DNA of 64,000 nt, from NCBI GenBank assembly GCA_036274895.1, contig DASUEU010000058.1, positions 84,885-148,884 on the forward strand. The letters run 5' to 3'. This document shows positions 1,528 to 60,700 of this stretch, one piece after another; within the stretch, counting starts at the first letter, position 1; each line of letters starts with the position of its first letter. The notes under the pieces are model-generated. The model was given only the letters and a program-made list of their open reading frames with translations, ran no database searches and was not told where the DNA came from. This DNA is from Thermoanaerobaculia bacterium. GTDB taxonomy: Bacteria; Acidobacteriota; Thermoanaerobaculia; Multivoradales; SZUA-115. A program made the translations under genes and the position numbers.

Positions 1528-4500
1528 TCGCCCCCTCCTTCCTCGACACGGCCGAGCCAGAACAGGGCGCGGGCCGCGGCCGGCCCGGGGCCCTCGGTCT
1601 CCCCCGCCGCCTCGGCCCAGCGGGTGAAGCGCCGGCGGGCGCCAGAGTCCTCCTGGAGGCAGGCCTCCTTGACCGTGCAGGAGCGGCACCGGGGCCCCTG
1701 CTTCTCTAGGGCCGGGTCGAGCAGGCGGGGTACCCGGCTGCCCCGGGCCAGGGCCGCCACCACGGTGCCAGCCGACTTGGTGAAGGCGGGCCGGAGGGCC
1801 TCGAGCTCGTCCGGCTGGAGGCGCAGCAGGCGCTCTTCCGGCTGCCAATTCAGCTCCGGCCGGCCGAGGAAGAGATAGCCCCCACCGGGGCCATCGGACA
1901 GGGCCGAGGCGTAGGCCACGCCCTGGAGCCAGCGCCCTTGCGCCACCAGGACGGGCAGGCGTTTGCGGCTGTTGGCGGAGGCGGGTGGGTCGCTCCCCCG
2001 CTCGTCGAGGAACGGTCGACCCGCCTTGAGATCGAGCAAGGTCGGCTCCCCGGCCAGGGGCAGCAGCAGATCGGCGCGGAAGCCCACCCGCAGGCCCTCG
2101 GCGCCGGTCATGGCCTCCCCCCGCAGCTCCGCGCCCATCACAGCGGGCTGGGGCCCGAGGCCCTCGCGCAGCACGTTCCAGAACACCGCGGCCCGCTCGG
2201 CCAGGGCCGGTGTGAGCAGGGGCACCCCGTCCTCCCGGGCCACCCGCTCTGCCTCCCGCTCCAGCTCGGCGGCGATCTCGCCGGCCGGCGGCAGGGGCAC
2301 GCTCACCGGCGATCGGACCAGGGCCTCGGCGAGCTCGACCTCCACGGCCCCTCCCGCCCGCGCCACCAGCCGGGCCAGCAGAGCGTGCACCACCATGCCC
2401 ACCAGGCGCGGCGACAGCTCGGGCAGGCCGGAGCGCGGATCCGGCAAGGCGCCCAGGCGCAGCTCGCGGCCGAGGAAGCTCTGCCAGGGGCAGGCGGCGA
2501 CGGCCTCGATGGCGGTGACGGGAAGCACCTCCGGCAGGCTCCCCCTGCCGAGCAGCCCGAACCAGGGCCCCAACCGCCGAGCCCGTTCCCGGCCCTCGGG
2601 GCTGCCGAGGTCGGGGTCGAGCTCGTCGAGCACCGCCCGCCGCAGCCGCGGCGGCTCCCGCCGGCCGGCGAGGGCGAGAGCGGGAGGCAGGGCCGAGTCC
2701 CAGGCCCGGCGGTCGCCGGCCAGGCCGGCGCCGATCAACCACTCGAGGGCCGGCCAATCGCCGTCGCCCGAGGGATGCCGAAGGGTGCCAGCCGAGTTGG
2801 GTACGGCCCCCGACCAGCGCAGGCGATCGACGAACGGCGAGGCGGGCAACGGCTGGCCGGCCTCGTCCGCGACCGCCCAGGAGACCTCGACGGCCGGCGC
2901 CGAGCCGAGCAATTGGCCGAAGAGGTAGCTCTCTTCCTCCACCCCCAGCCCCTTGACCGGCAGGTCGGGCAGCAGCAGGGTGAGGGCCCGGCGCAGGTCG
3001 TCCGGCAGGAAGGGATCCTCCCGCACGGATCTGGGGAATGAACCGGCCTGCGCCCCGAGCAGGAAGAGGTGTTCGAACACCCGCCCCCTCGCCTCGGTCA
3101 CCGAGAGCAGCTGGACCCCGCTCCCGGCCCCTCCCAGGGACGGAGCATCCAGGCGCTCCTCGGCCCGCTCGGCGAGCAGGAAGAGCTCCTCGGGGGCCAA
3201 CGGCAGCTCACCCGGCAGCTCGGCCTCCAGGACCGCCAGCACCTGCCACGGTCGAGCCGGCGGGGACTCGGGGAGCCAGCCGAGGGCCTCCACGAGGAAG
3301 GTCCGGGCGTGGCGGAGGTGGGCCGACAGGGGGCGGGGCCCCCCCTCCCGTCCCGGCCAGCCGTCCAGGGCCGTCGCCGCCCGCTTCGCTCGCGCCAGCG
3401 CCGCGCGAAGCTCCGGCCCGGGCAGCCCCCGGCGCTGGCGCCCCGACCCTGCACCCTCCTCGTCCTCTCCTTCCTCGATGCTCGCCGCGATCGGCAGGGG
3501 CACTTGACCTGCGACCAGCACCGAGCCGGGATCCAGCCTCGAGAGGTCGGCCAGGCGCGAGGCCCCGAGGATGCGCAGGGCCAGGCGCAGCTCGGTGCTG
3601 CGGCCCTCCCCGGCCGCCTCCAGCCAGCGGTCGACGGGCGTCGCGGTGCCGGAGCGCAGCAGCTCGAGGAAGGCCGCCATGCGACGCTCCGGCCCGCCCG
3701 GCGAGGCGGCAGTGCCGGGAGCCGAGAACGGCACGCCGAGCCGGCCAAACGCCTCCGCCAAGGCCAATCGGTGCGAACCGACGTCCCGAGCCACCAGGGC
3801 GATGCGCTCGGGGACGGCGCCGGCATCGAGCAAGGCCCGGGCCGCCACCACGGCCCGGCGGGCCTCCGCTCCGGGCGTGGCGCAGGGGTGGAGCGACACG
3901 GCCGCGGCCTCCCCGTCCGGCTCGAGGGCGAGCTCGCTGGCCGGGCGGCCGGTGAGGCGCAGGGCCAGCCGGTCGGCGAAGGCGAGGCCGCCGGCTCGGG
4001 GGCCGGGCAAGTCGAGTAAGACCTCGGCCCGGCGGGCCACGACCAAGGTCTCGAGCAGGTCGAGAGCGAGGCCGGTGGCGTCCGCCCAGCCGTGGAGGAG
4101 AATGGCGCGGGCCGGCAGCAGCTCCGGGCGTGAGCGCAGCAGGGAAGCTGCGCGGGCGTAAGCCTCGCCGGTGCGGCCGAGCCCCAGGGCCGCGAGCTCC
4201 TCGCCGGTGTCGGCGGCCACTCGCAGCAGGGCGCGAGCCCGCTCGAGAGTGGGCTGCGGAAACGCCCCGGAGAGGGCCGCCACCCGCTCCAGGCAGGCTT
4301 CGAGATGGGCGCGTTCGAAGCCGGCGTCGAGCAGGTCCCGCACCGTGCCGGCGAGGGCGCCGTAGCCGTCGGCGAAGCCCCCGAGGGCCGCGGCCAGGGC
4401 TCGCTCGGCGCGGGCGCGGCGGCGCACCAGCACTTCGAAGACCAGGCCTCCCGTGGGCATCGGCTCCCCGGCCTCGAGCAGGGCACGACGGGCGAGGGCC

Positions 4501-10405: not shown

Positions 10406-10472
10406 CTTCCCCCTTCCAATATCTAGCCTCTCAGAGTGTTGAGCTCTGTCGCCCAACGTTTGAGCTGAGGCG

Positions 10473-10559: not shown

Positions 10560-10591
10560 TCGCATCGAGCGAAGGGTTAGGCATCGCCGGG

Positions 10592-11972: not shown

Positions 11973-12113
11973 GCCACCGCCGGTGACGACCGTGCGCTCG
12001 TGGGGATGAAAGGTCAGGGTCTGGCTCCAGGTGTAGAGGGCGGAGAGCAAACCGATTTCCGCACCGAGGTGCTTGGGGTCGGCGGCGCCGAGGGCGTCCA
12101 GGAACTTGAACAA
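11973..12113 (-). pseudogene. IS91-family (Y2 HUH) transposase remnant
   Basis: The fragment ..LLSALYTWSQTLTFHPHERTVVTGGG.. matches the conserved IS91 Tnp block (..LHTWGQNL.LHPHLHCLVTGG..) with the HUH histidines degraded. It is only ~47 aa and the surrounding frames are broken. Confidence 0.4.
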
Positions 12114-34319: not shown

Positions 34320-34346
34320 GCCACCCGCCGGAAGGTGCCGCCGGAA

Positions 34347-34399
34347 GGTGCCAGCCGAGTAGGTACGGCGATGCCGCACCAAGGTGCCAGCCGACTTGG
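34347..34399. repeat. tandem pair of the dispersed motif GGTGCCAGCCGAsTTGG
   Basis: ggtgccagccgagtagg (34347-34363) and ggtgccagccgacttgg (34383-34399) lie between convergent gene ends. Confidence 0.8.
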
Positions 34400-35293: not shown

Positions 35294-36562
35294 TCAGTTG
35301 CCGATGGTCGTGTCGACGACCGCCGGATCGGTCACGTTGCTCAGCTGGAAGGCGTCGAAGCCAACGCTGAAGCGGCCGCTGGCATCCATGATCGCCGTCA
35401 CCCAGTTCTGCATCTCGGGCTCGAACGGCACCTGGCTGCCCACCACGGTGGAGTTCAGGTTGAGGTACAGCCAGCCGAAGTCGAACGGCACCGGGAAGTC
35501 CGCGCCACCCACGGCCACGCGGTTCGCCTCCCACGGGAAGGGGATCAGCGACGTGCCCGGGATCGGCGGCGAGAAGGGGCTGGAAACCGGGATGTCCGGG
35601 TTCTCCTGCTCGTCGAAGATCACGATCTGGTTCTGGCTGAGCGGGAACGGGCTCGGGGCCACCAGAGCGCAGCTGAAGGGAGCGATGCCCCGCTTCGAGT
35701 CGCGCCACACCACCAGGTCGGTGCCGCCGTCGAAGGCGCCGCCGTTCAAGAACCGGACGAAGAACAGGTTGTCCAGACCCTCGCGGTTGTCGTCACCGGC
35801 GGTGAACTTGCGGTAGAAGGTGTAGTTGCCCGCGCCGAGCTGCGCGTCGGCCTCGATGTGCACCATCGTCTCGCCCTGGGCGAAGTTCTCGGCCGAGTTG
35901 ACGTAGAAGTAGTCGCCCAGCATGACGTTCTGGTTGGTGGCGTCGCCCTGGCCGCCGCTGATGAAGTAACCGACGTCGCCGGGGAAGCGCAGCGAGCAGT
36001 TGTTCACCGTGTCGACGGTGATGTAGCCACGGGCGACGTTGTCGCCGTGGTCCACGCCCGAGCACAGGCCACCGAAGACCACCGGCGAGGCCTGGCCGGT
36101 GTGGGCCGCCCGGATGTGGTCGAGCAGCACGGCCGGCAGCGGCGGCAGCGGGAGCTGGCCGGTGCAGCTGGCGAAGTTGATGTCCTGGGAGAAGTCACCC
36201 TGGGGGCTGATGGTGTCCGCCGGGTCCTGACCGTCCGACGCGGTCCGCGGCACCGTACCGCTGCTGAACAGGTCGCGCAGGTTGAAGGACTGCACGTCGT
36301 AGCCGGTCAAGTAGACGTTGAAGTCCAGGGTCGGCACCGAGAGGTCGGTCCACAGGGTCACGTGGGCCAGGATCGCGGTGGCGGAGGAGTTGTTGATCGA
36401 GAAGAGGGTGGTGACGCCGTTGGGGTCGTCGAGGTCGACCTCGAAGTACGGCAGCAGCAGGGTCGCCGCCGGCACGTCGTCGATGGTGCCGATCTCGGCG
36501 CGGATCTGCCCGGCCCCGGCCACCAGGCCGACGAGCGCGAGGGCAAGCGCGATACGCTTCAT
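35294..36562 (-). CDS. secreted hypothetical protein, tandem paralog A
   Basis: Signal peptide MKRIALALALVGLVAGAGQIRA. 422 aa, ~90% identical to the neighbouring gene. Confidence 0.7.
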   Translation of the reverse strand: MKRIALALALVGLVAGAGQIRAEIGTIDDVPAATLLLPYFEVDLDDPNGVTTLFSINNSSATAILAHVTLWTDLSVPTLDFNVYLTGYDVQSFNLRDLFSSGTVPRTASDGQDPADTISPQGDFSQDINFASCTGQLPLPPLPAVLLDHIRAAHTGQASPVVFGGLCSGVDHGDNVARGYITVDTVNNCSLRFPGDVGYFISGGQGDATNQNVMLGDYFYVNSAENFAQGETMVHIEADAQLGAGNYTFYRKFTAGDDNREGLDNLFFVRFLNGGAFDGGTDLVVWRDSKRGIAPFSCALVAPSPFPLSQNQIVIFDEQENPDIPVSSPFSPPIPGTSLIPFPWEANRVAVGGADFPVPFDFGWLYLNLNSTVVGSQVPFEPEMQNWVTAIMDASGRFSVGFDAFQLSNVTDPAVVDTTIGN

Positions 36563-36789: not shown

Positions 36790-38064
36790 TTAGAAGCCGC
36801 CGCCGATCAAGATGTCGTTGACACCCGGCGCCGTGACGTTGCTCAGCTGGAAGGCGTCGAAGCCCACGCTGAAGCGGCCGTTGGCGTCCATGATCGCCGT
36901 CACCCAGTTCTGCATCTCAGGCTCGAACGGCACCTGGCTGCCCGCCACGGTGGAGTTCAGGTTGAGGTACAGCCAGCCGAAGTCGAACGGCACCGGGAAG
37001 TCCGCGCCGCCCACGGCCACGCGGTTGGCCTCCCAGGGGAAGGGGATCAGGGAGGTGCCGGGGATCGCCGGCGAGAAGGGCGACTGCACCGGGATGTCCG
37101 GGTTCTCCTGCTCGTCGAAGATCACGATCTGGTCCTGGCCGAGCTGGAACGGGCTCGGGAAGGGCAGGGCGCAGCTGAAGGGAGCGATGCTGCGCTTGGA
37201 GTCGCGCCACACCACCAGGTCAGTGCCACCGTCGAAGGCGCCGCCGTTCAAGAACCGGACGAAGAACAGGTTGTCCAGACCCTCGCGGTTGTCGTCACCG
37301 GCGGTGAACTTGCGGTAGAAGGTGTAGTTGTTCACATTCAGGGTGGAGTCGGCCTCGATGTGCACCATCGTCTCGCCCTGGGCGAAGTTCTGGGCCGAGT
37401 TGACGTAGAAGTAGTCGCCCAGCAGCACGTTCTGGTTGGTGGCAATGCCGAGGCCGCCGCCGACGAAGTAGCCGACGTCGCCGGGGAACTGCAGGGTGCA
37501 CTGGTTCACCGTGTCGACGGTGACGTAGCCGCGGGCGATGTTGTCGCCATGGTCGACGCCCGAGCACAGGCCACCGAAGACGATCGGCGAGCCCTGGCCG
37601 GTGTGGGCCGCCCGGATGTGGTCGAGAAGGGTCGCCGGCAGGTTCGGCAACGGGAGCTGGCCGCTGCAGCTGGCGAAGTTGATGTCCTGGGAGAAGTCAC
37701 CCTTGGGGCTGATGGTGTCGCCCGGATCCTGGCCTGCCGAAGCCGTCCGCGGCACCGAGCCGGTGGTGAACAGGTCGCGGAGGTTGAAGGACTGCACGTC
37801 GTACCCGGTCAGGTAGACGTTGAAGTCCAGGGTCGGCACCGAGAGGTCGGTCCACAGGGTGACGTGGGCCAGCACCGCGGTGGCGGAGGCGTTGTTGATC
37901 GAGAAGAGAGTGGTGACGCCGTTGGGGTCGTCGAGATCGACCTCGAAGTACGGCAGCAGCAGGGTCGCCGCCGGCACGTCGTCGATGGTGCCGATCTCGG
38001 CGCGGACCTGCCCGGCACCGGCCACCAGGCCGAGCAGGGCGAGAACGAGAACGATGCGCTTCAT
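36790..38064 (-). CDS. secreted hypothetical protein, tandem paralog B
   Basis: Signal peptide MKRIVLVLALLGLVAGAGQVRA. 424 aa, collinear with paralog A. Confidence 0.7.
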   Translation of the reverse strand: MKRIVLVLALLGLVAGAGQVRAEIGTIDDVPAATLLLPYFEVDLDDPNGVTTLFSINNASATAVLAHVTLWTDLSVPTLDFNVYLTGYDVQSFNLRDLFTTGSVPRTASAGQDPGDTISPKGDFSQDINFASCSGQLPLPNLPATLLDHIRAAHTGQGSPIVFGGLCSGVDHGDNIARGYVTVDTVNQCTLQFPGDVGYFVGGGLGIATNQNVLLGDYFYVNSAQNFAQGETMVHIEADSTLNVNNYTFYRKFTAGDDNREGLDNLFFVRFLNGGAFDGGTDLVVWRDSKRSIAPFSCALPFPSPFQLGQDQIVIFDEQENPDIPVQSPFSPAIPGTSLIPFPWEANRVAVGGADFPVPFDFGWLYLNLNSTVAGSQVPFEPEMQNWVTAIMDANGRFSVGFDAFQLSNVTAPGVNDILIGGGF

Positions 38065-41626: not shown

Positions 41627-42055
41627 GTGGCGGCCCCGTCCCTGCTTGACACCAATTCGGCTGGCACCTACAATTGCACCATGACGCAAACGTGCAATCT
41701 GGGCGATCGACACGCCTGCTGCGCCCAGGTGGGTGCCCTGCTCCGGCCGGAGCTGTTCCGGGCCCTCGCCGACCCGACCCGCCTGGCGGTGCTGCTCCGG
41801 CTCGTTGAGCTCGGCCGGCCGGCCACCGTGTCCGAGATCGCCTGCTGCTGCCCGATCGACCTTTCCGTGGTCTCTCGCCATCTGGCGGCCCTCAAGGCCG
41901 CGGGAATCACTACCTCCAAGAAGGAAGGCAAGGAGGTGCGCTACCGCGTGCTCTATGCCTCGCTGGCCGCAACCCTGCGCGAGCTGGCAGCGACGATCCT
42001 CGCCTGCTGCCCGTCGCAAGAGGACCCGGAACCCAACCCAGGAGAAACTCCATGA
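41627..42055 (+). CDS. arsR: ArsR/SmtB-family metalloregulator
   Basis: Winged-helix block ELFRALADPTRLAVLLRL with Cys pairs. The start is either GTG 41627 or ATG 41681. Its stop overlaps the arsM start as ATGA. Confidence 0.8.
   Translation: MAAPSLLDTNSAGTYNCTMTQTCNLGDRHACCAQVGALLRPELFRALADPTRLAVLLRLVELGRPATVSEIACCCPIDLSVVSRHLAALKAAGITTSKKEGKEVRYRVLYASLAATLRELAATILACCPSQEDPEPNPGETP
41652..41668. repeat. dispersed motif copy (arsR 5' region)
   Basis: ccaattcggctggcacc. Confidence 0.7.
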
Positions 42056-42888
42056 GTCGTCCCGAAGAGGTCCGTTCCACTGTCACGGCTTCCTACACCC
42101 GAGCCGTCCTCCAACTCGGTACCGGCTGCTGTGGCGGAGGCGCCAAGGGCGTCGCCGCCCGAGTTGCCGGCTACCAGAGCGAAGAGCTCGCCGCGCTGCC
42201 CGCCGACGCGGTCGCCAACTCCTTCGGCTGCGGCAATCCCGTGGCCTTCGCCGGTGTCCAGGAGGGCCAAGTCGTGCTCGACCTCGGCTCCGGCGCCGGC
42301 ATCGACCTCCTCCTCGCAGCCCGCAAGGTCGGGCCGACCGGCAAGGTCATCGGCGTCGACATGACCGAGGCCATGATCGAGCGGGCCCGGGCCAACGCCG
42401 CGGCGGCCGGACTCTCCAACGTGGAGGTACGCCGCGGGATCATCGAAGAGCTGCCAGTCGAATCTTCTTCGGTCGACTGGGTGATCTCGAACTGTGTGAT
42501 CAACCTCTCCCCCGAGAAGGACCGCGTCTTCGCCGAGATCGCCCGCGTGCTCAAGCCGGGCGGGCGAGTGCTGGTGTCGGACATCGTGGCGGAGGACCTC
42601 CCCGCCGCCGTGCGTGAGAACCCCGACCTCCACTGCCAGTGCGTGGCGGGGGCGATCTCTGAAGCCGAGTACCTGGCAGCACTCGAACAGGCTGGCTTCA
42701 CCGAGGCCAGTGTCGAGGATCGCCTGTTCTACGACCCCGAGCAGCTCCAGGCCCTGGTCGAGTCCGAGCTGGCCGGGCAGGCAGCTTCCTGCTGCGGCAG
42801 CTCCCTCGCCGACCTCTCGGCCGACCTCGTCGCCTCCTTCGCCGGCAAGGTGTGGAGCGCGCGGGTATCCGCCACCAAGCCGGTCTGA
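42052..42888 (+). CDS. arsM: arsenite S-adenosylmethionine methyltransferase
   Basis: SAM-MTase motif VLDLGSGAG. ArsM cysteine pairs (GCCGGG, FGCGNP, CQC, SCCG) and VISNCVINL are present. Confidence 0.85.
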   Translation: MSRPEEVRSTVTASYTRAVLQLGTGCCGGGAKGVAARVAGYQSEELAALPADAVANSFGCGNPVAFAGVQEGQVVLDLGSGAGIDLLLAARKVGPTGKVIGVDMTEAMIERARANAAAAGLSNVEVRRGIIEELPVESSSVDWVISNCVINLSPEKDRVFAEIARVLKPGGRVLVSDIVAEDLPAAVRENPDLHCQCVAGAISEAEYLAALEQAGFTEASVEDRLFYDPEQLQALVESELAGQAASCCGSSLADLSADLVASFAGKVWSARVSATKPV

Positions 42889-44321
42889 GCACCCTCCCCC
42901 ACCTCGGCGCCCGGTCCAACCCCCGGCGCCGAGCCCTCCTCCTCGGAGGTGCCAGCCGCTTTGGGAACGGGCGGCTCGACAGAGTTGCCCGAAGCCTCGA
43001 CGAGAGGCCCCGGCTCGCCCTTGTGCTCTGCTCGGCCAGGCGCTTCGGTGGCCGCCAGGACGAACGAGTTGTTCTCGACGACCACCTCGGCAGCCCCGTC
43101 CGCGACCACCCGCCCCCCTTCGAAGCGGTTCCTGGACACCACGAAACGAGGGAGACGAAGCCCCGGCCCGCGGACCTTCCAGCGGATCTCCTCGCCGCTG
43201 CTCAACCGATTGCCGACCACTGTGACCCGGCCCCCGAAAGCTGGGTCCAGCCCCCCTCGCAGGCGCAACGCCAGGAACGTTCCACCGCCCTTGGAGAAGT
43301 TGTCTTCGATCGCCACGTCGCCGTTCCAGCCGAGATTGACGGTCGCGACCGCTGCGTTGTGGAGATCCTCGAAGCGATTGGCGACAACATGCGTCCCCCG
43401 GTTCTTCGCCGAGAAGGTCACCGCACCATCGCTGTGCCCCGCTTCTCGGTGCCTCCTCCCCAGCGCGCTGAAGCTGTTGCCCTCGATCAGCACACCAGTG
43501 GTCGCCGAGAGATGGACTCCCGCCCCGGCCCCACCATGAAACTGGTTGCCGGTGAGCTGGACGTCATTGGCTGAGAAGAGCTGTACAGCGTCGCCCCAGG
43601 AATCGACGAAGCGACATCCTGTCACCGCCAACCTGCGCCCCATCAAGAGGAGGGACTCTCCCCGCTGCCAGGCCACGTATTGGTGATTCCCCCGGTAGTT
43701 CCCATCGAAGATCAGCCCCTCGACCCTGAACCCGTCGACCGGCGCCCAGGCACGCACCAGGGAGGCGATCGTGACCACCCGATCGCCCGCTCGGTAACCT
43801 CGGCCGAGCTGTGCGCCCAGGATCAGCCGGCGGCCGCTGTCGACGCTGAGCACCCGCAACCGCCGGTGCGGACCTTCGCCGTCGGCCATGGCCAGACCCG
43901 CGACCGGCGTCACGTAGAAGCCGGGCCGGAACGCTGAAGCATCTTCGAGCTCGACGGCGGTGGCCCCCGCCGCCACGTCGTTCAGCAAGCGAGCCACCAC
44001 GCTGTCCATCCTCAGGAGGGTGGCTCCCCGGCCGACCCAGCGTTGACCTGGCAGGGGTCGGAGCTCGCTGCACAGCCGGTAAACCCGATCCGGCTCGAAA
44101 AGCACCACTCCCCCCACTCCCGCGGCCGCGACCACGGCCTGGAGGCGCCCCTCCTCGCAGCCGGTGTCCTGACCAGCGCCAAACCGAAAACCCGATACCT
44201 CAACAGTCCGCGGCAGCAGGGGGTGCGGCAAGCCACGGGAAGGCGCTGCAGCAAGCAGCGATGTGAGGCCGGCGGCGAGCCAGAGCAGGGATCGCTTGCC
44301 AGGGCGGGTGTTCTCCCTCAT
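42729..44321 (-). CDS. secreted right-handed beta-helix (pectate-lyase-like) repeat protein
   Basis: Signal peptide followed by repeated GN-rich beta-helix turns (NDVQLTGNQFHGG.., IEGNSF.., IEDNFS..). The 3' 160 nt overlap the arsM 3' end convergently, and the low-complexity C-tail may be non-functional. Confidence 0.6.
   Translation of the reverse strand: MRENTRPGKRSLLWLAAGLTSLLAAAPSRGLPHPLLPRTVEVSGFRFGAGQDTGCEEGRLQAVVAAAGVGGVVLFEPDRVYRLCSELRPLPGQRWVGRGATLLRMDSVVARLLNDVAAGATAVELEDASAFRPGFYVTPVAGLAMADGEGPHRRLRVLSVDSGRRLILGAQLGRGYRAGDRVVTIASLVRAWAPVDGFRVEGLIFDGNYRGNHQYVAWQRGESLLLMGRRLAVTGCRFVDSWGDAVQLFSANDVQLTGNQFHGGAGAGVHLSATTGVLIEGNSFSALGRRHREAGHSDGAVTFSAKNRGTHVVANRFEDLHNAAVATVNLGWNGDVAIEDNFSKGGGTFLALRLRGGLDPAFGGRVTVVGNRLSSGEEIRWKVRGPGLRLPRFVVSRNRFEGGRVVADGAAEVVVENNSFVLAATEAPGRAEHKGEPGPLVEASGNSVEPPVPKAAGTSEEEGSAPGVGPGAEVGEGAQTGLVADTRALHTLPAKEATRSAERSARELPQQEAACPASSDSTRAWSCSGS
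42948..42964. repeat. dispersed motif copy (3' tail of beta-helix ORF)
   Basis: ggtgccagccgctttgg. Confidence 0.6.
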
Positions 44322-44356: not shown

Positions 44357-44373
44357 GGTGCCAGCCGCCTTGG
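44357..44373. repeat. dispersed motif copy (between beta-helix and RAYT gene starts)
   Basis: ggtgccagccgccttgg. Confidence 0.6.
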
Positions 44374-44431
44374 GAGAAGGGAGCTCGACCCGCCTCTTCG
44401 GGGCGCTGCCGCTGTTTTCCGTCTAGTACAA

Positions 44432-45352
44432 GTGATGGCTCGTCCGCTGCGCTACACCGTCCCCGGATCCCTCATGGAGGTCACCATGCGAACCCTCCAA
44501 GGCAGGTTCCTGCTCAGACCCTCCACCCGGTTGAACCAGATCATCGCGGGCTGCCTGGGGCGAGCCCAAAAGCGCCATGGCATGGCGATACACGGCTGCG
44601 TCTTCCTCTCGAACCACTTCCATCTCTTGCTCAGTCCTTCGGATGCCCACCAACTCGCCCGTTTCATGAACCACTTCGCTTCGAAGCTCGCTCGGGAGGT
44701 GGCCAGGCTCTACGGCTGGCGGGAGCACGTGTGGGGACGCCGCTACCAGGCCATCCCGGTCAGCGACGAGGAGCCGGCTCAAGTAGGGCGCCTGCGCTAT
44801 CTCCTCGCGCACGGCTGCAAGGAGTCACTTGTCGAGCGCCCCGAGGACTGGCCGGGGGTGAACTGCGCTCGGGCTCTGGCAACGGGAGAGACCCTCTGCG
44901 GTGTCTGGCAGGACCGCTCGGCGGAGGCTGTCGCCCGCCACGAGGGTCGAGAGATCGATCCGTCGCGTTTCGCCGTGGCGGAAGAAGTGCGCCTCTCAGC
45001 CCTGCCCTGCTGGGCCCCCCTGTCGCCGGCTGAGTACCGGCAGCGCGTTCAGCAGCTACTGGAGGAGATCACGCACCACTACGCAGCCGAGCGAGCTCGC
45101 CAGGGCATCCGCTGCCTTGGCGCCCGGTGGGTGCTGCGCCAACACCCCCACTCTCGACCCAAGATCCTGCCGAGACGGCACGCACCGAGGATCCACGCGT
45201 TCACCTCCGAGGCCAGGAGGGCCTTTCAAGAGGCCTATCGAGCCTTCGTCCACACCTTTCGACTTGCTGCGCGGCGACTGCGGGCAGGTGACCTGGCCGT
45301 CCGGTTCCCGCCGTGGAGCTTTCCCCCACCTCTGCCCCTGCCCACCGGCTGA
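44432..45352 (+). CDS. IS200/IS605-like Y1 HUH transposase (RAYT-like)
   Basis: N-terminus MARPLRYTVPG.. and HUH motif FLSNHFHLLLSP. The Tyr motif HVWGRRYQAIPV resembles the RAYT WQRGYY block. Confidence 0.6.
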   Translation: MMARPLRYTVPGSLMEVTMRTLQGRFLLRPSTRLNQIIAGCLGRAQKRHGMAIHGCVFLSNHFHLLLSPSDAHQLARFMNHFASKLAREVARLYGWREHVWGRRYQAIPVSDEEPAQVGRLRYLLAHGCKESLVERPEDWPGVNCARALATGETLCGVWQDRSAEAVARHEGREIDPSRFAVAEEVRLSALPCWAPLSPAEYRQRVQQLLEEITHHYAAERARQGIRCLGARWVLRQHPHSRPKILPRRHAPRIHAFTSEARRAFQEAYRAFVHTFRLAARRLRAGDLAVRFPPWSFPPPLPLPTG

Positions 45353-46159: not shown

Positions 46160-46203
46160 GCGGTCGTCGCCCAGGACGCGAGGTCTCCCAACTCGGCGGT
46201 CAC

Positions 46204-46264
46204 CCAAGTCGGCTGGCACCTTTGGATTGGGGTTCCCCTGGGGTTCCCCAAGTCGGCTGGCACC
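46204..46264. repeat. tandem pair of the dispersed motif (reverse orientation)
   Basis: ccaagtcggctggcacc at 46204-46220 and 46248-46264, separated by ttggattggggttcccctggggttcc. Confidence 0.8.
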
Positions 46265-49458: not shown

Positions 49459-49483
49459 GACAGCAACCTCCTGGACGTTGGCC

Positions 49484-50728
49484 TCACGCCGCGTCGCTGC
49501 GCGTGAGAATCAGAGCCGCCGCGTGGCCGTCGAGGCCGAGCGCGGTGGCGAGCACCGTCCGCGCGTTGACGGCCCGGGGCCGGTTCGAAAGGGAGAGCGC
49601 GAGGCCCGGCTCCGGTTCGCCGAGACCGCCGATGCCGGGAAGTCGGCCGGAGGACAGGATCTCCAGCAGGGCAAGGGCCTGGAACCCGCCCGAGGCTCCG
49701 AATGCCTCGCCGAGGGCTCCCTTGATGGCCGTGGCGGGCACCGCCTCGGCCGCTTCCTCCAGGGACGAGGCGAGGCCCAGGGCCTCGGCGAGGTCCAGCT
49801 CCAGACTGCCCGACCCGCCGGTGACCACGGCCCCCAGGTCCCCGGGCCCGAGGCCCGCATCGGCGAACGCCGCTCGCACCGCCCGGCCCAGGGCCGAGGC
49901 GGCGCTCCACGGGTCCTGGCCCATCGATGGATCGAAGGCGGAAGCGTGGCCCACCACCTCCCCAAAGAGGCTGGCACCTCTGGCGCGGGCCCCTTCGAGC
50001 TCTTCGAGCAGCACCAGCGCGGCCCCCTCGCCGAGGGCGAACCCTCGCCGCCCGGCCCCGAACGGCACCGGTGAGCTCCCGGCCGCGGCCAGCAGGCCGG
50101 CACGACCGTAGGTCAGCCCGGCCTCCGGCGACAGCTCCTCCGCCCCCCCGGCCAGCAGCGCTTCGGCGTGCCCACCGCGGATCAGATCCGTGGCGTGACC
50201 GATCGCCGCCAACCCCGCCGTGGCCCCCCCGGCCATCGTCGAGTTGAGTCCCACCAGACCGTGCCAGATGGCTGTCTGCCCAGCCGGGGCGTTGATCACG
50301 CTGTTGGCGAAATCCAGGGGCTTGACGTAGTTCGGGCCGGCGGTCAGCCCGCGGCGATCGAACTCGGCGATGGTCTTGAGGCTGCCGAACTGGGTGCCCA
50401 GAACCAGCCCCACCGGCTGCGTCCGGCTCTCGACCTGGGCCAGACCCGCCTCGGCGAGAGCCAGTCCGGCAGCTGCCGCGGCCAGCCGCGAGGTCCGGTC
50501 GAGGGGCCGGACGTTGCGGTCGCCGAAGTAGGTCTCCGGCGCGAAGCCCCAGACCTCGCCGGCGACCACCGCGGCACAGCCGTTCCAGGTCGCCAGCGCC
50601 GACGGCCCGAGGCCCGACCGGCCCTCCTCGAGCGCAGCGGCGAAGGCCCCCGGCGTGTCCCCGAGGGGTGAGACGAGGCCCCGTGCGGTGACCACGACGC
50701 GGCGGCGGGAAGCGTTCAGGGCCGCCAC
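49484..50728 (-). CDS. ketosynthase-like chain-length-factor (KS beta, no active-site Cys)
   Basis: KS fold (..RRVVVTARGLVSPLGD..) with AGG at the position aligned to the catalytic TACAAG Cys. A GTG start overlaps the KS alpha 3' end. The listed ORF extends further in the same frame. Confidence 0.65.
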   Translation of the reverse strand: MAALNASRRRVVVTARGLVSPLGDTPGAFAAALEEGRSGLGPSALATWNGCAAVVAGEVWGFAPETYFGDRNVRPLDRTSRLAAAAAGLALAEAGLAQVESRTQPVGLVLGTQFGSLKTIAEFDRRGLTAGPNYVKPLDFANSVINAPAGQTAIWHGLVGLNSTMAGGATAGLAAIGHATDLIRGGHAEALLAGGAEELSPEAGLTYGRAGLLAAAGSSPVPFGAGRRGFALGEGAALVLLEELEGARARGASLFGEVVGHASAFDPSMGQDPWSAASALGRAVRAAFADAGLGPGDLGAVVTGGSGSLELDLAEALGLASSLEEAAEAVPATAIKGALGEAFGASGGFQALALLEILSSGRLPGIGGLGEPEPGLALSLSNRPRAVNARTVLATALGLDGHAAALILTRSDAA

Positions 50729-52467: not shown

Positions 52468-55400
52468 TCAAGGCCATCCGAGCCCCTCGAGCTCGGCCGC
52501 CGGGCGGCCTTCGACGCCGAGATCGACCACCAGGGTGGCGTCGTCCGAGGAGAGCTCGACCTCGCGCAGGCAAGCCCGATCCCGGCGTGGATCGGCAAAG
52601 ATGACTCGATAGCGGCCCGGGGCCAGCCCGGCGAAAGCGAAGCGCCCCTCCGGATCGGTCTGACCCACGACCATCGAGCCGTTCGCCCCCAACGCGCCGA
52701 CGGTGGCTTCCACGAACGGGACGCCGTTCGACAGCAGCAGGCCGGCCAGACGCAGACCTTCGGCGAGCACCAGCTCGAGCTCGACGAGACGCTGCCCGGC
52801 CCCGATCTCGACCGTCGCCTCGGTCCCCTGGTTGGTGGCGGCGCTGACCACCGAGACCCGCCAGGTGCCCGGGGCAAGCCCCTTCATCTCGAAGCCTCCC
52901 CGGGCGTCGAGCCTGGCCCAGGCCGTCTGACCGTTTTCGTCGGCGGCCGTCACCTGCACGCCCGCCATCTGCGCGGCTTCGAGGCCCACCACTCGTCCCG
53001 CGAGCGTCGCACCTCGCGCCAGGACCACCTCGAAGTCCGCGATCGGCCGCTCGCCGACTTCCAGCGGCAGGCCTTCGCTGGGAACCAGGAAACCCTGGGT
53101 CTGGACCATCAGCCGATAGGTGCCGGGTGGCACGGACGGCATGCGGAACTGGCCGTCCGGGGCCGACATGGTGTGGAGGGCGGCACCGGAACCCTCCGGC
53201 TGGGCGAGCAGCAGCAAGGCCCCCCCCACGCCCGCACCCTCCTCGTCCACGACCCGACCTGCGACCGACACGCCCCGGCGCAGCACGAAGTCTCGCTGCT
53301 GGGTGCCGGGCCGGATGTCGACCTCGTGGGTCTCGGCGACGAAGCCTTCGGCCGCGACCCTGACCGAGATCTGCCCCACCGCGAGGCCGGCCAAGCGGTA
53401 GCGGCCCGAGGCATCCGTGGCGCCGCCTGCGGTCCCCAGCATGGTCACGGTCTCGGACTTCGTCTGGGCGAAGATCGCGGCCCGGGGATGGGGGCGGCCC
53501 TCCTCGTCGACCACCGTGCCCTCGAGCATGGCCCCTGGCTGCAGGCGCAGGACGATGCCGGCCCGGCGCTCGCGGGGACCCAGCTCCAGTCCGGCGAGGG
53601 CAGCGGGCAAGTAGTCGTCCGCGGTGGCCGCCAGCTCATAGCTGCCGGGCTCGATCCCCGAGAGGACGAACTCGCCATTGCTTTCGGTGGGCTCGGCCGC
53701 GAGGATCGGGATGCGAAAGCGCGGACTCGCCTCCCCGGCGCCGGGCCCGGCGGGGAGCAGGTGCACCGTGGCGCCCTCGACCGGTGCCCCGGCCCCGTCC
53801 ACCACCTGCCCCGAAACCTGCGCTCCCGGGTCCAACACCAGCCGCAGGGGCCGCTCGGGCGGGACTTCCACGCCCGCCGCCCGGGTGACCCGGTAGCCGG
53901 TCTTGCGGGCCGTCAGGTCGACCGTGCCTCCAGCCGGGAGCCCGCCGATCTCGAAGCGCCCGTCGGCACCGGTCGAGGCGAAAAAGGAGGCCTCCTCTCC
54001 CGGGGACACACCGAGCACCGGAGCGGAACCGGAGGCGAGCTTGGGCGTGGCCTGGAGGTCGACGCCGGCGACCGGCTCGCCGTCGCGGTCGACGACCTTG
54101 CCTTCCAGCCGGGCTCCGGGGTGAAGGGTGATCACCCCGAGATCGGCTACCCCCGCCTCGCTCGCGACCGGCTGCCGCCGGATCTGCCCGGGAGCGAAGC
54201 CGGGCGCCTCGGCCCTGAGATCGACCAGGTCGCCGGCCAGGCCTACCAGCTGGTAGGCCCCCGACTCGTCCGTGGTGGCTCGGGTCTCTGGCTTCGCCGG
54301 CTCCGGGGAGACCCAAGCGAGATCGTCCTCGAGGTGCAGCGAGGCGTAGACGGTCGCACCCACCACCGGGCGGCCCTCGCGGTCCTCCACCCGGCCGTGG
54401 CCCTCGACCCGGGAGCGCAGCACGATGCGCAGCCCCGTGTGGCTGCCGCCGGCGTCGAGGCCGGCCAGACGGATCGGCTCGGCCCAGAAGCCTTCGACCT
54501 CCACCCCCACGGCATATCGGCCTCGGGGATCCAGGCCTACGAGCGCGAAGCGACCGTCCGGCCCGCTGCGACCCAGTGCCATGGCATCTCGGGCGTCGAC
54601 TCGCAGGCCGCCCCAGCCGGCCAGGACCAGCACGTCGGGCACCGCGACGCCCTCCCCGTCGACCACCACCCCCTCGATCCTCACCGCCGGTCGCAGCAGG
54701 AGAGAGACTTCGGAGCCGTCCTGCCGGCTCGGCCGTTCCTGATCTGGATGGAAGCCGGCCGCCGCGGCCGCCAGGGAAGCCGCGGCGCCCTCGGGCCGCA
54801 CCGCCAGACGGAAGCGGCCGCCCCGACCGGAGACGGCATGGGACCCGTGTTGTCCCGGCGCCCACACCACCGCCCCTGCCACCCCCTCGAGGTCGGGCAG
54901 AGACCTCACCCGGCCCTCCCTCACCACCAGGGCCGGCAAGGTCACCGGCTCGGGCCTCGGCTCGGCCTCGGTCTCGAGCGGCGGCAGAGTCAAGGCCAGC
55001 TCTTCGCCGTCCGGCCCCACCAGTAGCCGCTCGAGGGGCCGGCCGGCCTGGCCGCGCAGCACCAGCAGGCCGTCCGGTCCGGTGGGCCCGGCCACAGGCA
55101 GGTCGGCGAGGAGGGCGAGGACTCCCGCCAGGGGCCGACCCCGGGGGTCGCGAGCCACCACGGGCCTCTCCCGCCCGGGCTCGAGAGTCAGCGCCACCTT
55201 CTCGCAGGACGGCGGCAGGCTCTCAAGCAGGGGAGCCTTGCCCGGTGCCTCCACCGCCACGCTCACCGCCACCCCCGCCGCGCACGGCAGAGCGAGGCGC
55301 CCGGCCTCGTCGCTGGCGAGGAAAACGGGGGCGAGCAGGGTCTTGAGCCTCTGCGAAGGGCCCAGGTGCCGGAAGTCGGCCGCGCTCTCCCCCAAGGTGC

Positions 55401-55881
55401 CAGCCGAGTTGGGGGCCGCCTCGAAAGTGGCGAGGATCCGCGCTCCGGCCAGGGGCTCGCCCCTCTCGTCGCGCACGGTCAGCGTCCTCCTCCCGGCCCG
55501 CGGCAGCGAGAAGGGAGCCAGCTCCCGCTCTTCCACCAAGGGCGTCAGGAAGAGGGCGAGGCCCAGGTGGTCGGGGGCCCCCACCGTCAGCCGCCACAGG
55601 CCCGGCTCGGGAGCCAGGATCTCGAAGCGGCCGTCGCGGCCGGCCCGCGAGCGGGCCACCGGCTCGGCCACGATCGGCAACACCGGCGCCAGCTCCACCG
55701 AAGCTCCGGCGAGCCCTTGGCCGTCCGGCCCGGTAACGACGCCGGAAACGGGGATCGGCTCGGCCAAGACCGCGAGGGGGAAGAAGGAGAGGACAAGTAG
55801 CTGGGCGAGGACGGTGCGGGCGAGGCGGCGGTGGCAGGACACACGATCCCCCTTCCTTCGAGAGCGAGAGAATACGCCCAT
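52468..55881 (-). CDS. giant secreted protein of tandem CarboxypepD_reg/prealbumin-like domains
   Basis: 1137 aa with a signal peptide and ~10 repeats of the G.VVD..G.P..GA.V pattern. Confidence 0.65.
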   Translation of the reverse strand: MGVFSRSRRKGDRVSCHRRLARTVLAQLLVLSFFPLAVLAEPIPVSGVVTGPDGQGLAGASVELAPVLPIVAEPVARSRAGRDGRFEILAPEPGLWRLTVGAPDHLGLALFLTPLVEERELAPFSLPRAGRRTLTVRDERGEPLAGARILATFEAAPNSAGTLGESAADFRHLGPSQRLKTLLAPVFLASDEAGRLALPCAAGVAVSVAVEAPGKAPLLESLPPSCEKVALTLEPGRERPVVARDPRGRPLAGVLALLADLPVAGPTGPDGLLVLRGQAGRPLERLLVGPDGEELALTLPPLETEAEPRPEPVTLPALVVREGRVRSLPDLEGVAGAVVWAPGQHGSHAVSGRGGRFRLAVRPEGAAASLAAAAAGFHPDQERPSRQDGSEVSLLLRPAVRIEGVVVDGEGVAVPDVLVLAGWGGLRVDARDAMALGRSGPDGRFALVGLDPRGRYAVGVEVEGFWAEPIRLAGLDAGGSHTGLRIVLRSRVEGHGRVEDREGRPVVGATVYASLHLEDDLAWVSPEPAKPETRATTDESGAYQLVGLAGDLVDLRAEAPGFAPGQIRRQPVASEAGVADLGVITLHPGARLEGKVVDRDGEPVAGVDLQATPKLASGSAPVLGVSPGEEASFFASTGADGRFEIGGLPAGGTVDLTARKTGYRVTRAAGVEVPPERPLRLVLDPGAQVSGQVVDGAGAPVEGATVHLLPAGPGAGEASPRFRIPILAAEPTESNGEFVLSGIEPGSYELAATADDYLPAALAGLELGPRERRAGIVLRLQPGAMLEGTVVDEEGRPHPRAAIFAQTKSETVTMLGTAGGATDASGRYRLAGLAVGQISVRVAAEGFVAETHEVDIRPGTQQRDFVLRRGVSVAGRVVDEEGAGVGGALLLLAQPEGSGAALHTMSAPDGQFRMPSVPPGTYRLMVQTQGFLVPSEGLPLEVGERPIADFEVVLARGATLAGRVVGLEAAQMAGVQVTAADENGQTAWARLDARGGFEMKGLAPGTWRVSVVSAATNQGTEATVEIGAGQRLVELELVLAEGLRLAGLLLSNGVPFVEATVGALGANGSMVVGQTDPEGRFAFAGLAPGRYRVIFADPRRDRACLREVELSSDDATLVVDLGVEGRPAAELEGLGWP
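55394..55410. repeat. dispersed motif copy (inside giant CarboxypepD_reg gene)
   Basis: ggtgccagccgagttgg. Confidence 0.7.
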
Positions 55882-57760: not shown

Positions 57761-60700
57761 TTACGGCGCGGCGCGTGGCAGTTGGGAGAGGTCCAGCTCC
57801 AACGTCTGGTCAGCGTCGAGCGTGAGCACCTGCTCGTAGGCCGCGGCCATCCGCTCGCCCAAGGTGCTGAGGACCATTCGATACCGCCCCGGCTTGAGCC
57901 CCCGCAAAGCGAAGCGACCCTTCTCGTCGGTCATCGTGCTCGCGCGTCCTGCCTCGCCCTCGAGCGCGAGGTGCATCCGCTCGACGGGCGCCGTCCCCCA
58001 CAGCAGCTGGCCGGACAGCGACAGCCCCGGCGCGAGAGGCAGCGTCACCGACGCCTCGAGCGCCCCTTCGGCGAGCTCGACGGCGGCGGACCCGCTCAAG
58101 TTCTGGGCGCCCGGCACCGCCTGCACCTGGTACGAACCGGGAGCCAGGCCCTCGAGCCGGAAGCGGCCTCGAGCGTCGACGGCGGCCGAGGCCCGAGGGC
58201 CCTTCCCATCGAAAGCGGCGACCCGCAGCCCGACCGTTTCCGCGGGCTCGACACCGGTGACGGCCCCGACGATCGCCCCACCCCGGTCGAGCACCAGCTC
58301 CAGATCCTCCACCGCCTGGCCTCCCACCTCGACTGAGGTGGGGCCGGCCGGAGCCCGATAGCCCTCGCGCTGCGCCGCGATCACGTAGCGCCCCGGCGGC
58401 ACGCCGCCGATGCTGAACGAGCCCTCCCGGCCGCTCTGGATCATGGCCAGGAATGGCCCGCCGGCTTGCTCCTCCAACACCACGTTGGCACGGGGCACGG
58501 GGACCCCCTCGGCGTCGATCACCCGGCCTCGCACGGTCGCGCCCCGCCGCAGGGTAAAGTCGAGCCGGCCGCCGGTTTCGGTGACCTCCACCGACTTCTC
58601 GACCGACAGCCACCCCTCGGCGCCGGCGGCCAGCTGCTGATGGCCCGGAGCGATCCCCTCCAACCGATAGCGCCCCGCGCCGTCGACCCCCGTGCCACCA
58701 TCGCGGATCAGCTCTCCGGACAGCTCGCGGACCTGGCTGACCCACGCCCCCAGGACCGGCTGGCCGGCCTCGTCCAGCACCTGCCCCTCGAGCACGGCTC
58801 CTTTCGAGAGCACCAGGTCGAAGCCCTCGACCTTCGAACCGGCTGGCACCTCGATCGTGCGCGGGGAGGCCGGCAGGTAGCTGCGCGCGCTCGCCGCAAC
58901 GCGGTATGGACCCCCGGCCAGCTTCTTGACCTCGAACCGGCCCTCCTCGTCGGTGCGAGCCCGTGCCGCTCGCCACGGCCTCGACCGCCGCAGCTCCGGC
59001 GGCAGGGGCGAGACCGGATCGACCTCGACCTCTGCTCCAGCGATCGGCTCGCCGCCCGCCGCGACGACCCGGCCCAGCAGCCGTGCCGCCGGTTCCAGAA
59101 CCACTTCGAGAGGCGAGTCTGGAAGGGGCACTTCGACGTCCTCGGTGGTGGCGCTCAGGTAGTCATCGTGCTCGACCCATACCGAGATCCGCGCCCCGCT
59201 CGGCAGCTCCCCGAAACGGAAGCGACCCTCCTCGTCCGTGAAGCGGGGTAGTAAGGCCCGGATTGGCCGAGGCGTGCCTTGCGTGAGCCCGGGCAACCCT
59301 CGGCTCAGCCGGTAGCCGACCCTCGCCCCGGCGACGGGCAAGCCCGAGCGGTCTACGACCCGACCTGAGACGACGGCCTCCGGGCCCAGGCGCAGGGTAC
59401 CGAGGTCCAGGGGACCTCGGCCGGCATCGACCTCGCGATCCGCCTCGATGGCGGGGGCGAAGCCCTCAGCCCGGGCGATCACCTCGAGCCGCTGCGCCGG
59501 GGGCAGGGCCTCGACGCGGAAGCGGCCTTCCTCTGCGGAAACCACGGGCGCTCCTGGCTCAGTGCCCATCCGCAGCTCGCGCTCTTCGGCGCCGGACGGC
59601 CTGGCCGTCACGTAGACCTCCGCTCCGGCCACCGGTCGGCCTTCGGGATCCACAACCAGGCCGAAGCCGGCGCGTTGGGCGGTGAGCACCAGCCGTAGCC
59701 CGGTGACGGGCTCGCCGCTCTCGAGGCCCTCGACCACCAACGGCTTGCCCACGAACCCTGGAGCCGAGGCCGAAAGCAGCGGCCAGAAGCCAGGAGGCAC
59801 TCCCCTGATGTGGAATCGGCCGTCGGCGGTGGAGATGGCTCGGTGGGCCGTGAGCCGGCCCTCGGGGCCCAGGGTCACGATGGCTCCACGAACGGGCGCA
59901 CCTTTCTCGTCCACGACCTCCCCTGCAAGGGAAGCGGCCGGGCGGAGAGCCAGGATCAGCTCGCCCTCGGTCATCGGGGAAGCGGGCAGCACCCCCGGCG
60001 CGAATCCGGGCGCTGCCGCGCGCAGCTGCACCGATCCCACCGGGGCGCTCAGGCGGAAGCCTCCCCGCCGATCGCTGAGCACGTAGCCGGCGAGGATGCC
60101 TGCCCCCTCGAGCCAGACCACGGCCCCGGGCAGCGGTTCGTAGGGCTCGGCGACCATCACCCGGCCGGTGACCTCGGGGACGGGCTCGAGCGTCACTCGC
60201 CACGGAGTCGGGGGCGCCGGCGAAGGGCCGACCTCGGCGCGCCAGCCGTCTGGGGCCTGGAGTGAAAGGGCTGCCGCTCGGGCGGGGTCGAAGCGCAGGG
60301 CGAGCCGGCCGTCCCTGTCACTCGGTCCGGCGACCTTCACCCCCTCGAGCCGCGCCTCGACTCCCTCGACGGGTCGGCCTCGCGGCCCCACCAGCTCGAC
60401 GGTGCGCTCGACGCCGCCGGTCACGGTCCAGGAAGCGGCGTCGCAGCCGTCCGGAAGATCCTCCGCCCGCGGCGCGAGGCCGTCGGCAGCCACCACCAGG
60501 CGCCACCTCACCGCTTCCGCACAAGGCAGCTCGATCGAGCCGTCGCTGCCAGTTGTGCCGGAGATCTCGGCCGGCCTGGCCTCGCCGCGGGCTCGAGGCC
60601 AGGGAGAGCCGGGTCTGGGCTGGACTTCGGCGACCGGTTGGGCCAACCACCGGGCGCCGGAGAGGGCGCGGCCGGCTGCGTCCCGCAGCGTCAGGGGTCG

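Follow-up and report, generated by a model that had tools for sequence, protein, structure and literature searches.

A dispersed non-palindromic 17-nucleotide repeat and its probable association with a RAYT-like HUH-Y1 gene in Thermoanaerobaculia

Systems combining repetitive extragenic palindromic (REP) sequences and REP-associated tyrosine transposases (RAYTs) are among the few repeat families persisting vertically in bacterial genomes. To our knowledge, the recognition and propagation of repeats by such an enzyme are known only for the hairpin-plus-GTAG REPs of Proteobacteria. The present work concerns a stretch of 64 kb, called the window hereafter, from a Thermoanaerobaculia bacterium of the Acidobacteriota (contig DASUEU010000058.1), in which an original prediction had pointed out a recurring 17-bp motif. 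We argue that this 17-mer is probably the cognate repeat of the RAYT-like HUH-Y1 enzyme encoded at 44435-45352 of the window, in an arrangement resembling those named REPtrons and TIRtrons.

REP/RAYT (TnpA_REP) systems, or 'REPtrons', have been classified in detail (PMC6006769) and extended by the REPIN-RAYT concept (PMC3116915). A gene accompanied by oppositely oriented repeats defines a REPtron, or a TIRtron when these repeats are non-palindromic (PMC6006769; PMC3733652). Both REPs and families of non-palindromic terminal inverted repeats (TIRs) are known to flank RAYT-like genes, and some of the TIR families are repeated and form dimers or clusters (PMC6006769; PMC3733652). The Y..NP signature is given for all class 2 subclasses of these proteins (Table 1 of PMC6006769). 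Occasional in-frame genic copies have been reported for REPs, and TIRYTs were judged 'less productive' by the authors of the same study (PMC3733652).

A repeat that brackets a RAYT-like gene

With up to two mismatches allowed, GGTGCCAGCCGASTTGG finds 11 matches in the window, at 1764(+), 2784(+), 34347(+), 34383(+), 41652(-), 42948(+), 44357(+), 46188(-, degenerate), 46204(-), 46248(-) and 55396(+). Dinucleotide-preserving shuffles yield 0.02 expected matches and none of 100 attained 11, so that the strong over-representation claimed at the outset is supported, together with the presence of the motif in both orientations and its non-palindromic character. The core 10-mer GGTGCCAGCC occurs 12 times and is followed by NNN-T[TA]GG in 11 of these instances; the window consensus thus reads GGTGCCAGCC-NNN-TTGG, in which the central triplet varies. 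The form initially proposed, GGTGCCAGCCGAsTTGG, is right for the core and for TTGG and too strict for the triplet. All the near-identical copies first listed are present, with 55394 corrected to 55396; the two degenerate ones placed at 49964 and 58834 exist at 49962-49978(-) and 58834-58850(-), the second probably by chance, and an extended context ending in gtacgg is shared by 2784 and 34347 and by no other copy. The 12 copies are spread over 54 kb at a density of about one per 5 kb, in DNA with a G+C content of 60-77% (about 70% overall). Copies are also found in two related metagenome-assembled genomes (MAGs), JBIOYC01 and JBIOWG01, on other contigs (loci L028/L074, L031, L122 and L129), at orthologous as well as non-orthologous places; copy counts given here cover the window and selected contig regions of related MAGs.

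The 305-aa protein encoded at 44435-45352 matches Pfam PF01797 with 31.7 bits, above the cut-off of 23. It is composed of an N-terminal catalytic domain, with the HuH motif at N60-H61-F62-H63 and the catalytic tyrosine at Y122, and of a second, C-terminal domain some 150 aa long. In an alignment of 30 homologs, H61, H63 and Y122 are invariant and the C-terminal domain is conserved too; searches found no known relative and no fold match for the latter. The top NCBIfam family is the REP-associated tyrosine transposase NF047646 (1.1e-13, 51.3 bits). A search of the PDB with the single sequence gave no match. The profile of the 30-homolog alignment retrieved ISDra2 TnpA (1.6e-5), with an alignment that positions both the HuH and the Tyr motifs, and E. 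coli TnpArep 4ER8 (0.06); the nearest fold is that of the E. coli REP-associated transposase, 4ER8. Homologs are numerous, with 1,431 matches in a 90%-clustered database and a family of 1,277 clusters (50% identity, E <= 1e-30), mostly full-length at about 305-315 aa, many members of which carry the IMG label 'REP element-mobilizing transposase RayT'. Additionally, a conserved GTTTTCCGTCT box, separate from the motif, lies about 10-20 nt 5' of the start codon in several family genes (window 44405-44432, L028, L126, L131) and is a candidate promoter, leader or end-like element.

The link between motif and gene was followed over nine family genes, among them homologs 51-78% identical and L028, which was found through a motif scan; the related loci were partly found via the motif itself, and several of them share a MAG or stem from sister MAGs. 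A same-strand copy of the GGTGCCA-NN-CGA type stands 45-218 nt upstream of eight of the nine genes, and five of the nine have an inverted copy 193-937 nt downstream. The window gene itself is bracketed in opposite orientations, by 44357(+) upstream and by 46188-46264(-) downstream. Throughout the loci, the GGTGCCA-NN-CGA core is kept and the 3' half of the motif varies with the gene (Table 1), giving a family-wide form of GGTGCCA-NN-CGA-N-TYGS; two paralogs of one MAG (L028 and L122) are even surrounded by different variants. We favor the REPtron/TIRtron-like reading because of these upstream and downstream copies and because the 3' half of the motif tracks the paralog or the genome. A motif bracketing a RAYT-like gene here, with variants of it bracketing the homologs in the other genomes examined, is the hallmark of REP/RAYT systems. 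The original prediction had instead proposed an uptake sequence, a signal akin to highly iterated palindromes (HIP-like) or the binding site of an abundant protein; neither an uptake role nor a pure binding-site role accounts for the constant association with this gene family.

Two modes of distribution were encountered. Over about 21 kb of L126 and L127, copies adjoin the gene or have an uncertain status, a core match at 5014 of L127, some 5 kb from the gene, being set aside as chance. The window lineage has dispersed copies: 12 in the window, seven or eight in L122 and others on L031 and L129. In locus L131, two RAYT-like paralogs share one contig (10001-10921 and 17433-18353, 6.5 kb apart), each with GGTGCCACCCGA-type flanks.

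Table 1. Position of the RAYT-like gene, motif copies and truncated units, and motif variants found with the family genes.
Feature	Position	Strand	Context or sequence
RAYT-like HUH-Y1 (TnpA_Y1) gene, 305 aa	44435..45352	+	Pfam Y1_Tnp (PF01797)
Motif copy GGTGCCAGCCGCCTTGG	44357..44373	+	spacer between divergent genes; 61 nt 5' of RAYT-like start codon, same strand
Three-copy cluster, inverted relative to 44357	46188..46264	-	spacer between convergent genes 45449-46159(+) and 46277-47782(-)
Full copies of the cluster, both GGTGCCAGCCGACTTGG	46248-46264, 46204-46220	-	
Degenerate duplicate of motif 3' part	46188-46204	-	abuts the 46204 copy
Locus of the original prediction	34328..34399	+	121-nt spacer; convergent genes on either side, for an amidase (ending at 34319) and a methyltransferase (ending at 34441)
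Truncated 5' unit ccggaaGGTGCC	34328-34339	+	ahead of the full copies
Full copy GGTGCCAGCCGAGTAGG	34347-34363	+	
Full copy GGTGCCAGCCGACTTGG	34383-34399	+	
Copy GGTGCCAGCCGAATTGG	41652..41668	-	divergent spacer, outer-membrane-protein gene / arsR
Copy GGTGCCAGCCGCTTTGG	42948..42964	+	59 nt past arsM-like stop; low-complexity 3' tail of convergent beta-helix gene frame, KAAGT
Genic copy	1764..1780	+	antisense to PD-(D/E)XK AddB-like gene 1524-4760(-); K-S-A-G-T, residues 995-999
Genic copy	2784..2800	+	antisense to same AddB-like gene 1524-4760(-); N-S-A-G-T, residues 655-659, indel-rich linker
Genic copy	55396..55412	+	antisense to CarboxypepD_reg-repeat gene 52468-55881(-); N-S-A-G-T
Probable copy GGTGCCAGCCTCTTTGG, triplet TCT, membership uncertain	49962..49978	-	sense strand of ketosynthase-like gene; G-A-S-L-F-G
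GGTGCCAGCCGGTTCGA, core 10-mer without TTGG, probably chance	58834..58850	-	
Truncated units	window 34328-34339; L028 ~3649; L131 ~15530		
Truncated units	L126 9690-9830 and ~11100-11190		both sides of gene
Truncated units	L127 ~9930 and 11280-11330; L130 9915-9960 and 11860-11930		
Variant, window / L028 ortholog			...GCCGAsTTGG
Variant, L122 (62%-identical paralog, same related MAG as L028)			...GCCGAnTTGC
Variant, L124			...GCCGATTCGC (GATTCGC)
Variant, L126			...GTCGATTCGG
Variant, L127			...CCCGnnTCGG
Variants, L130			...TGCGACTCGG / ...GGCGCCTCGG

Comparison with described systems

The resemblance to REP/RAYT systems is manifold: a low-copy HUH-Y1 gene lies between oppositely oriented copies of a short dispersed repeat, the E. 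coli TnpA_REP of the REP/BIME (bacterial interspersed mosaic element) system is, with structure 4ER8, the closest fold, each paralog has its own repeat variant, and the copies favor convergent-gene spacers and are inherited at orthologous sites. On the other hand, the repeat has neither a significant palindrome nor a GT[AG]G foot, and its core is conserved among genomes whose enzymes are about 51-57% identical, unlike in REP/RAYT systems. The protein departs from RAYTs by its length (305 aa) and additional conserved C-terminal domain, by YLLAHG in place of Y..NP and by its sub-cut-off NF047646 score. TIRYTs and TIRtrons (Di Nocera et al. 2013, PMC3733652; approximately subclass 2.1 of PMC6006769) share with the window the flanking of a RAYT-like gene by non-palindromic inverted repeats, the existence of moderately abundant families found as singles, dimers or clusters, and a longer protein with a C-terminal extension. 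Their TIRs have GGGGWSAS in common whereas the window core is GGTGCCAG; subclass 2.1 proteins possess a Y[IV]xLNP motif and a helix-turn-helix-like tail where the window protein reads YLLAHG; the acidobacterial TIRYTs measure about 190 aa, with HVH and Y..NPV(K/R)RGLV (PMC3733652), against 305 aa and YLLAHG here; and a density of about one copy per 5 kb contrasts with the 'less productive' label. Class 3 TnpA_Y1 proteins of Acidobacteria and Planctomycetes occur in the same phylum and are accompanied by atypical, weakly structured multi-copy repeats (about 600 in Solibacter) with CnGA-footed structures, reminiscent of the CCGA or TCGA contained in the window motif (PMC6006769). Their repeats nevertheless read CnGAGCCGCGACCGTnAGGGAGCG..., a GCCGCGACCGTnAGGGAGCG-type structure coming after the CnGA foot, and their proteins of about 178 aa carry a YV[VI]xEQ motif that the window protein lacks (PMC6006769). 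We rejected identity with class 3 CnGA repeats or acidobacterial TIRYTs, since neither sequences nor motifs match (PMC6006769; PMC3733652).

The IS200/IS605 transposases (TnpA; ISDra2, IS608) belong to the same catalytic superfamily, and their elements differ from the present one, which has no subterminal hairpins and no tnpB in its flanks, a single gene in the window, gene copies that are not near-identical (62% for the paralog in the relative) and a repeat far more abundant than the gene. Uptake sequences provide another analogy. The DUS (DNA uptake sequence) of Neisseria and the USS (uptake signal sequence) of Pasteurellaceae are short oriented motifs with a conserved core, present within genes, in tolerated frames and free of indels, and in spacers following genes, and they diverge into lineage-specific 'dialects' among related taxa. 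We know of no dedicated transposase-like gene flanking either of them. The window motif is likewise oriented and core-conserved, with indel-free genic copies and lineage variants; unlike DUS and USS, its strongest signal is the linkage to a RAYT-like gene. Judged by the defining features of these families, the window system is neither a canonical REP/RAYT, nor a TIRYT, nor a class 3 system, and we regard it as an atypical variant of the REPtron/TIRtron kind.

A number of observations weigh against even this broader assignment. The protein stays below the 80-bit cut-off of the RAYT equivalog NF047646 and reads R-Y122-L-L-A-H-G-C-K-E where Y..NP would be expected. The inverted copies found downstream in the window do not directly follow the RAYT-like gene: one other gene intervenes, and three do in the relative. 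Neighboring copies are direct and do not form the inverted doublets of REPINs, and no insertion polymorphism was seen between window and relative over 14 kb. Copy 1764 (and 49962, if real) lies in a protein segment of unchanged length, at odds with simple insertion. A GT[AG]G (or CGTC) foot is missing from the consensus, GTAG being encountered in copy 34347 only, through a T-to-A variant. Folding of the motif loci as single-stranded DNA gave z values of -1.0 to +1.6, no better than shuffles, and a fixed-register stem over 39 copies was paired in 59.4% of cells; column shuffles gave 57.2%, and 94 of 500 did as well.

A hairpin at the motif is therefore not established. Copy-specific complementarity of the flanks is in weak excess in a permutation test (2 of 300 permutations), and pairing arms can be discerned by eye, as CCAA...TTGG in the window, GCGA...TCGC in L124 and GCAA/TTGC in L122; at position 3115 of L129, the relative's copy of 2784, arms GTCCCCAA / TTGGGGAC lie on the sense strand of the AddB-like gene. 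Two specific structures were tried and discarded: an internal CCAG/TTGG hairpin, which fails in the L124 and L126 variants, and an outer CCAA/TTGG stem with the core as loop, for which pair count and folding energies are not significant and the permutation test only weakly so.

Turnover of the copies, proposed mechanism and rival explanations

The relatives allow a comparison of copies at orthologous positions. A JBIOYC01 contig (L028 and L074) is syntenic with 35.6-49.9 kb of the window at 77-88% identity, and L129, from the sister MAG, encodes an AddB-like ortholog with 80% protein identity. Each window copy within the regions shared with L028, L074 or L129 has an orthologous copy. Over seven such pairs, differences affect one of 70 positions of the 10-nt core, none of 28 in TTGG and 12 of 21 in the central triplet (positions 11-13; binomial p about 2e-4 against a 20% background); the core is thus maintained, by selection or homogenization, and the triplet turns over abnormally fast. 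All three triplet bases are changed at the ortholog of 1764 (GGTGCCAGCCACTTTGG in the relative) within a coding segment conserved at about 90%, and in the pair orthologous to 46204/46248 the core is kept and the triplet passes from GAC to TCT in both copies together. Intergenic flanks and inter-copy spacers are largely unalignable with the relatives. Where the window has one copy, at 44357, L028 has two in direct orientation (6545/6580), a difference that would fit recombination between copies. At 3700-4760 of L028, compared with window 46160-46190, an insertion of about 1.1 kb separates the gene downstream of the RAYT-like gene from the motif pair; it contains a partial motif, GATCGGCTGGCACC, and appears to hold two small genes which, judged by their sequence and not by any family search, may encode an HxlR-type regulator and a DinB-like protein.

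The copies also come in truncated form. Stacks of one to three units made of about 7 flanking nt and GGTGCC (or GGTGCT / AGTGCC), with a period of 11-14 nt, precede full copies in at least six loci; there are 8.9 of them per kb in the vicinity of full copies, compared with an overall 1.6 per kb. All these units end at the same motif position, GGTGCC, from which we infer that the HUH enzyme may cut and join just 3' of it; alternatively, GGTGCC may be a separately bound half-site.

As had been claimed, gene calls, made by GC3 (third codon position G+C)-guided open reading frame (ORF) calling and Pfam, place copies both inside and outside genes. About 90% of the genome is coding; of the 12 copies in the window, seven or eight fall outside genes or in a 3' tail and three or four are truly genic, as are about half of those in L122. 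The four antisense genic copies of the window, including the 42948 tail, share a single frame read (K/N)(S/A)AGT. Copy 1764 (KSAGT) is located in a helix of the AddB-like protein that shows no length difference from 14 orthologs: the 15-sequence alignment is gap-free at the site, and the stretch from a conserved F to a PRL motif across the copy measures 17 residues in all the representative orthologs counted. With a segment of constant length, the motif at 1764 was written into existing sequence, so that at least some copies did not originate as simple insertions. Similarly, the GASLFG of copy 49962 aligns without gap to G-V-E-P-I-A of a paralogous ketosynthase. Such indel-free genic copies are not predicted by simple cut-and-paste. 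Insertion is possible as the origin of two other copies, 2784 (NSAGT), in the indel-rich linker of the AddB-like protein, and 55396, in a loop that exceeds its counterpart in the paralog 57761-61036, the one sequence used for this comparison, by 11 aa; the first 300 residues of the CarboxypepD_reg protein, used as a query for homologs, returned no match. The two paralogs, 52468-55881(-) and 57761-61036(-), are about 1,100 aa long with some ten CarboxypepD_reg domains each and N-termini 42% identical, and only the former bears a motif copy, in its lengthened loop.

In the mechanism that we favor, the RAYT-like enzyme would recognize the motif in a single-stranded state, such as arises at a replication fork, and would nick and rejoin it through a 5'-phosphotyrosine intermediate, an activity that could spread, duplicate and homogenize the copies. 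Cutting or joining would take place just 3' of GGTGCC, as the truncated stacks suggest, and the fast turnover of the bases that follow would fit repeated processing there. The host would tolerate copies mainly in spacers, especially convergent ones, and in permissive loops or tails of proteins; some copies, such as the one in the arsR promoter spacer, may have been co-opted. A bolder version, which we hold to be doubtful, is that the enzyme rewrites short resident DNA patches in place, single-strand cutting and rejoining just 3' of GGTGCC installing or homogenizing the motif without change of length, even in genes, and turning over a 3-nt cassette much faster than point mutation does; this would amount to a site-specific editing or conversion system for single-strand DNA, borne by a large HUH-Y1 family of about 1,300 clusters at 50% identity.

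A serious rival, or additional function, is that the motif is bound, as an operator or an architectural element, by a protein with affinity for double-stranded DNA, possibly the C-terminal domain of the RAYT-like protein itself after domestication, in regulation or chromosome organization, with copies produced by point mutation and selection. We consider it unlikely as a full account. It would accommodate the bipartite conservation around a free 3-nt spacer, the persistence of copies at orthologous sites in DNA that has diverged by about 15-20%, the genic copies without length change and a conserved C-terminal domain devoid of assigned function; the copy ahead of eight of nine family genes would suit autoregulation, copy 41652 is the exact 17-nt spacer of a near-consensus promoter, and GGTGCC half-units are arrayed with a period of 12-13 nt. 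It leaves aside the invariance of HuH and Tyr across the family, which argues for a retained nuclease or ligase chemistry, and would place operators, oddly, downstream of convergent genes or inside genes in many cases. A triplet evolving faster than neutral flanks (12 of 21) is unexpected of a passive spacer, and the origin of a repeated 17-mer by point mutation is improbable without drive.

More improbable still is a genome-wide signal of the uptake-sequence type, driven by mutation and biased recombination and mechanistically foreign to the RAYT-like gene. Over-representation on both strands, dialect-like 3' variants in related genomes, two copies within a DNA-repair-type (AddB-like) gene and indel-free genic copies in one tolerated frame (xSAGT in all four antisense genic copies of the window) speak in its favor, but it does not explain the position- and orientation-specific linkage to one gene family (eight of nine), nor why the copies in about 21 kb of L126/L127 almost entirely adjoin the gene, nor the different variants around two paralogs of one MAG; moreover, the window showed no competence context. 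As for the motif being a by-product without function of its own, whether of a conserved peptide or codon usage (P-N/K-S-A-G-T), of the -24 box of sigma-54 promoters (TGGCAC) or of local duplication, the idea draws on the common frame of the four antisense genic copies, on TGGCAC within the reverse complement of the motif and on the 70% G+C of the window. We find it hardly credible: seven or eight copies are intergenic, sense-strand genic copies lie in other frames (49962; L122 6378), shuffles preserving dinucleotides yield 0.02 copies, and the recurrence on other contigs of related genomes answers the local duplication that the original prediction had named as its own refutation. A conserved-peptide origin is ruled out by the intergenic copies and the other frames, coding constraints do not explain the signal, and a sigma-54 promoter of the form TGGCAC-N5-TTGC fits one of 12 copies, and that with one mismatch.

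If the favored association of the 17-mer with its RAYT-like enzyme is correct, it would link a large uncharacterized HUH-Y1 branch to a non-palindromic repeat whose 7-10-nt core is conserved across genomes of the Acidobacteriota, a phylum that has received little study. The GGTGCC-ending units, the hypervariable triplet beside an invariant core and the length-neutral genic copies would yield predictions on nick site and recognition; the promoter spacer and protein loops would exemplify co-option of such elements. For annotation, the motif should be masked and labeled as a RAYT-associated repeat in Thermoanaerobaculia genomes.

Surroundings of the copies and other observations

Neighboring copies are arranged as direct repeats 35-44 nt apart, and a simple terminator scan indicates that motif pairs are not intrinsic terminators. 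Around copy 41652-41668, which forms exactly the 17-nt spacer, a sigma-70-type promoter-like site TTGACA-N17-TACAAT (11 of 12 positions to consensus) lies within 41646-41683, and the same layout is found in the relative L074 around 1295. The arsR ATG (41681) lies 6 nt after the end of the -10 box TACAAT, which suggests a leaderless arsR-arsM operon (41681-42055 and 42052-42888). Past this putative operon, the copy orthologous to 42948 is retained in the relative, where it reads PNSAGT with a stop codon soon after.

Searches beyond these genomes returned little. Among the matches listed in a genome-collection scan, the exact 17-mer was found mostly as chance singletons in unrelated taxa and in the related MAG JBIOYC01. 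Loci L038 (409-665, an Actinomycetes MAG), L119, L120 and L121 are unrelated 15-bp coding tandem repeats containing GGTGCCAGCC by chance, a source of false positives for database scans using the motif. A metagenome scan for tandem motif pairs recovered unrelated 15- or 20-bp coding tandem repeats and nothing else, a literature search for the motif string returned mouse quantitative PCR (qPCR) primers only, and Rfam and tRNA scans of the window gave no match.

Several other features of the window deserve mention. Two tandem paralogs without Pfam match, 35294-36562(-) and 36790-38064(-), encode 422 and 424 aa, and a strong hairpin resembling an intrinsic terminator comes after each of them (35272-35243 and 36770-36736). 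The region 8000-12000 has a G+C content of 0.61, against about 0.70-0.77 elsewhere, and contains three minus-strand ORFs without Pfam match (8603-9154, 9275-10540 and 10592-11596); it may be foreign DNA. Finally, a one-strand run at 46277-51936(-) encodes an RPE65-type carotenoid oxygenase, an FAD halogenase/lycopene-cyclase-like protein, a ketosynthase-like (chain-length-factor-like) protein and a ketosynthase, and may constitute a small lipid or pigment biosynthetic cluster.

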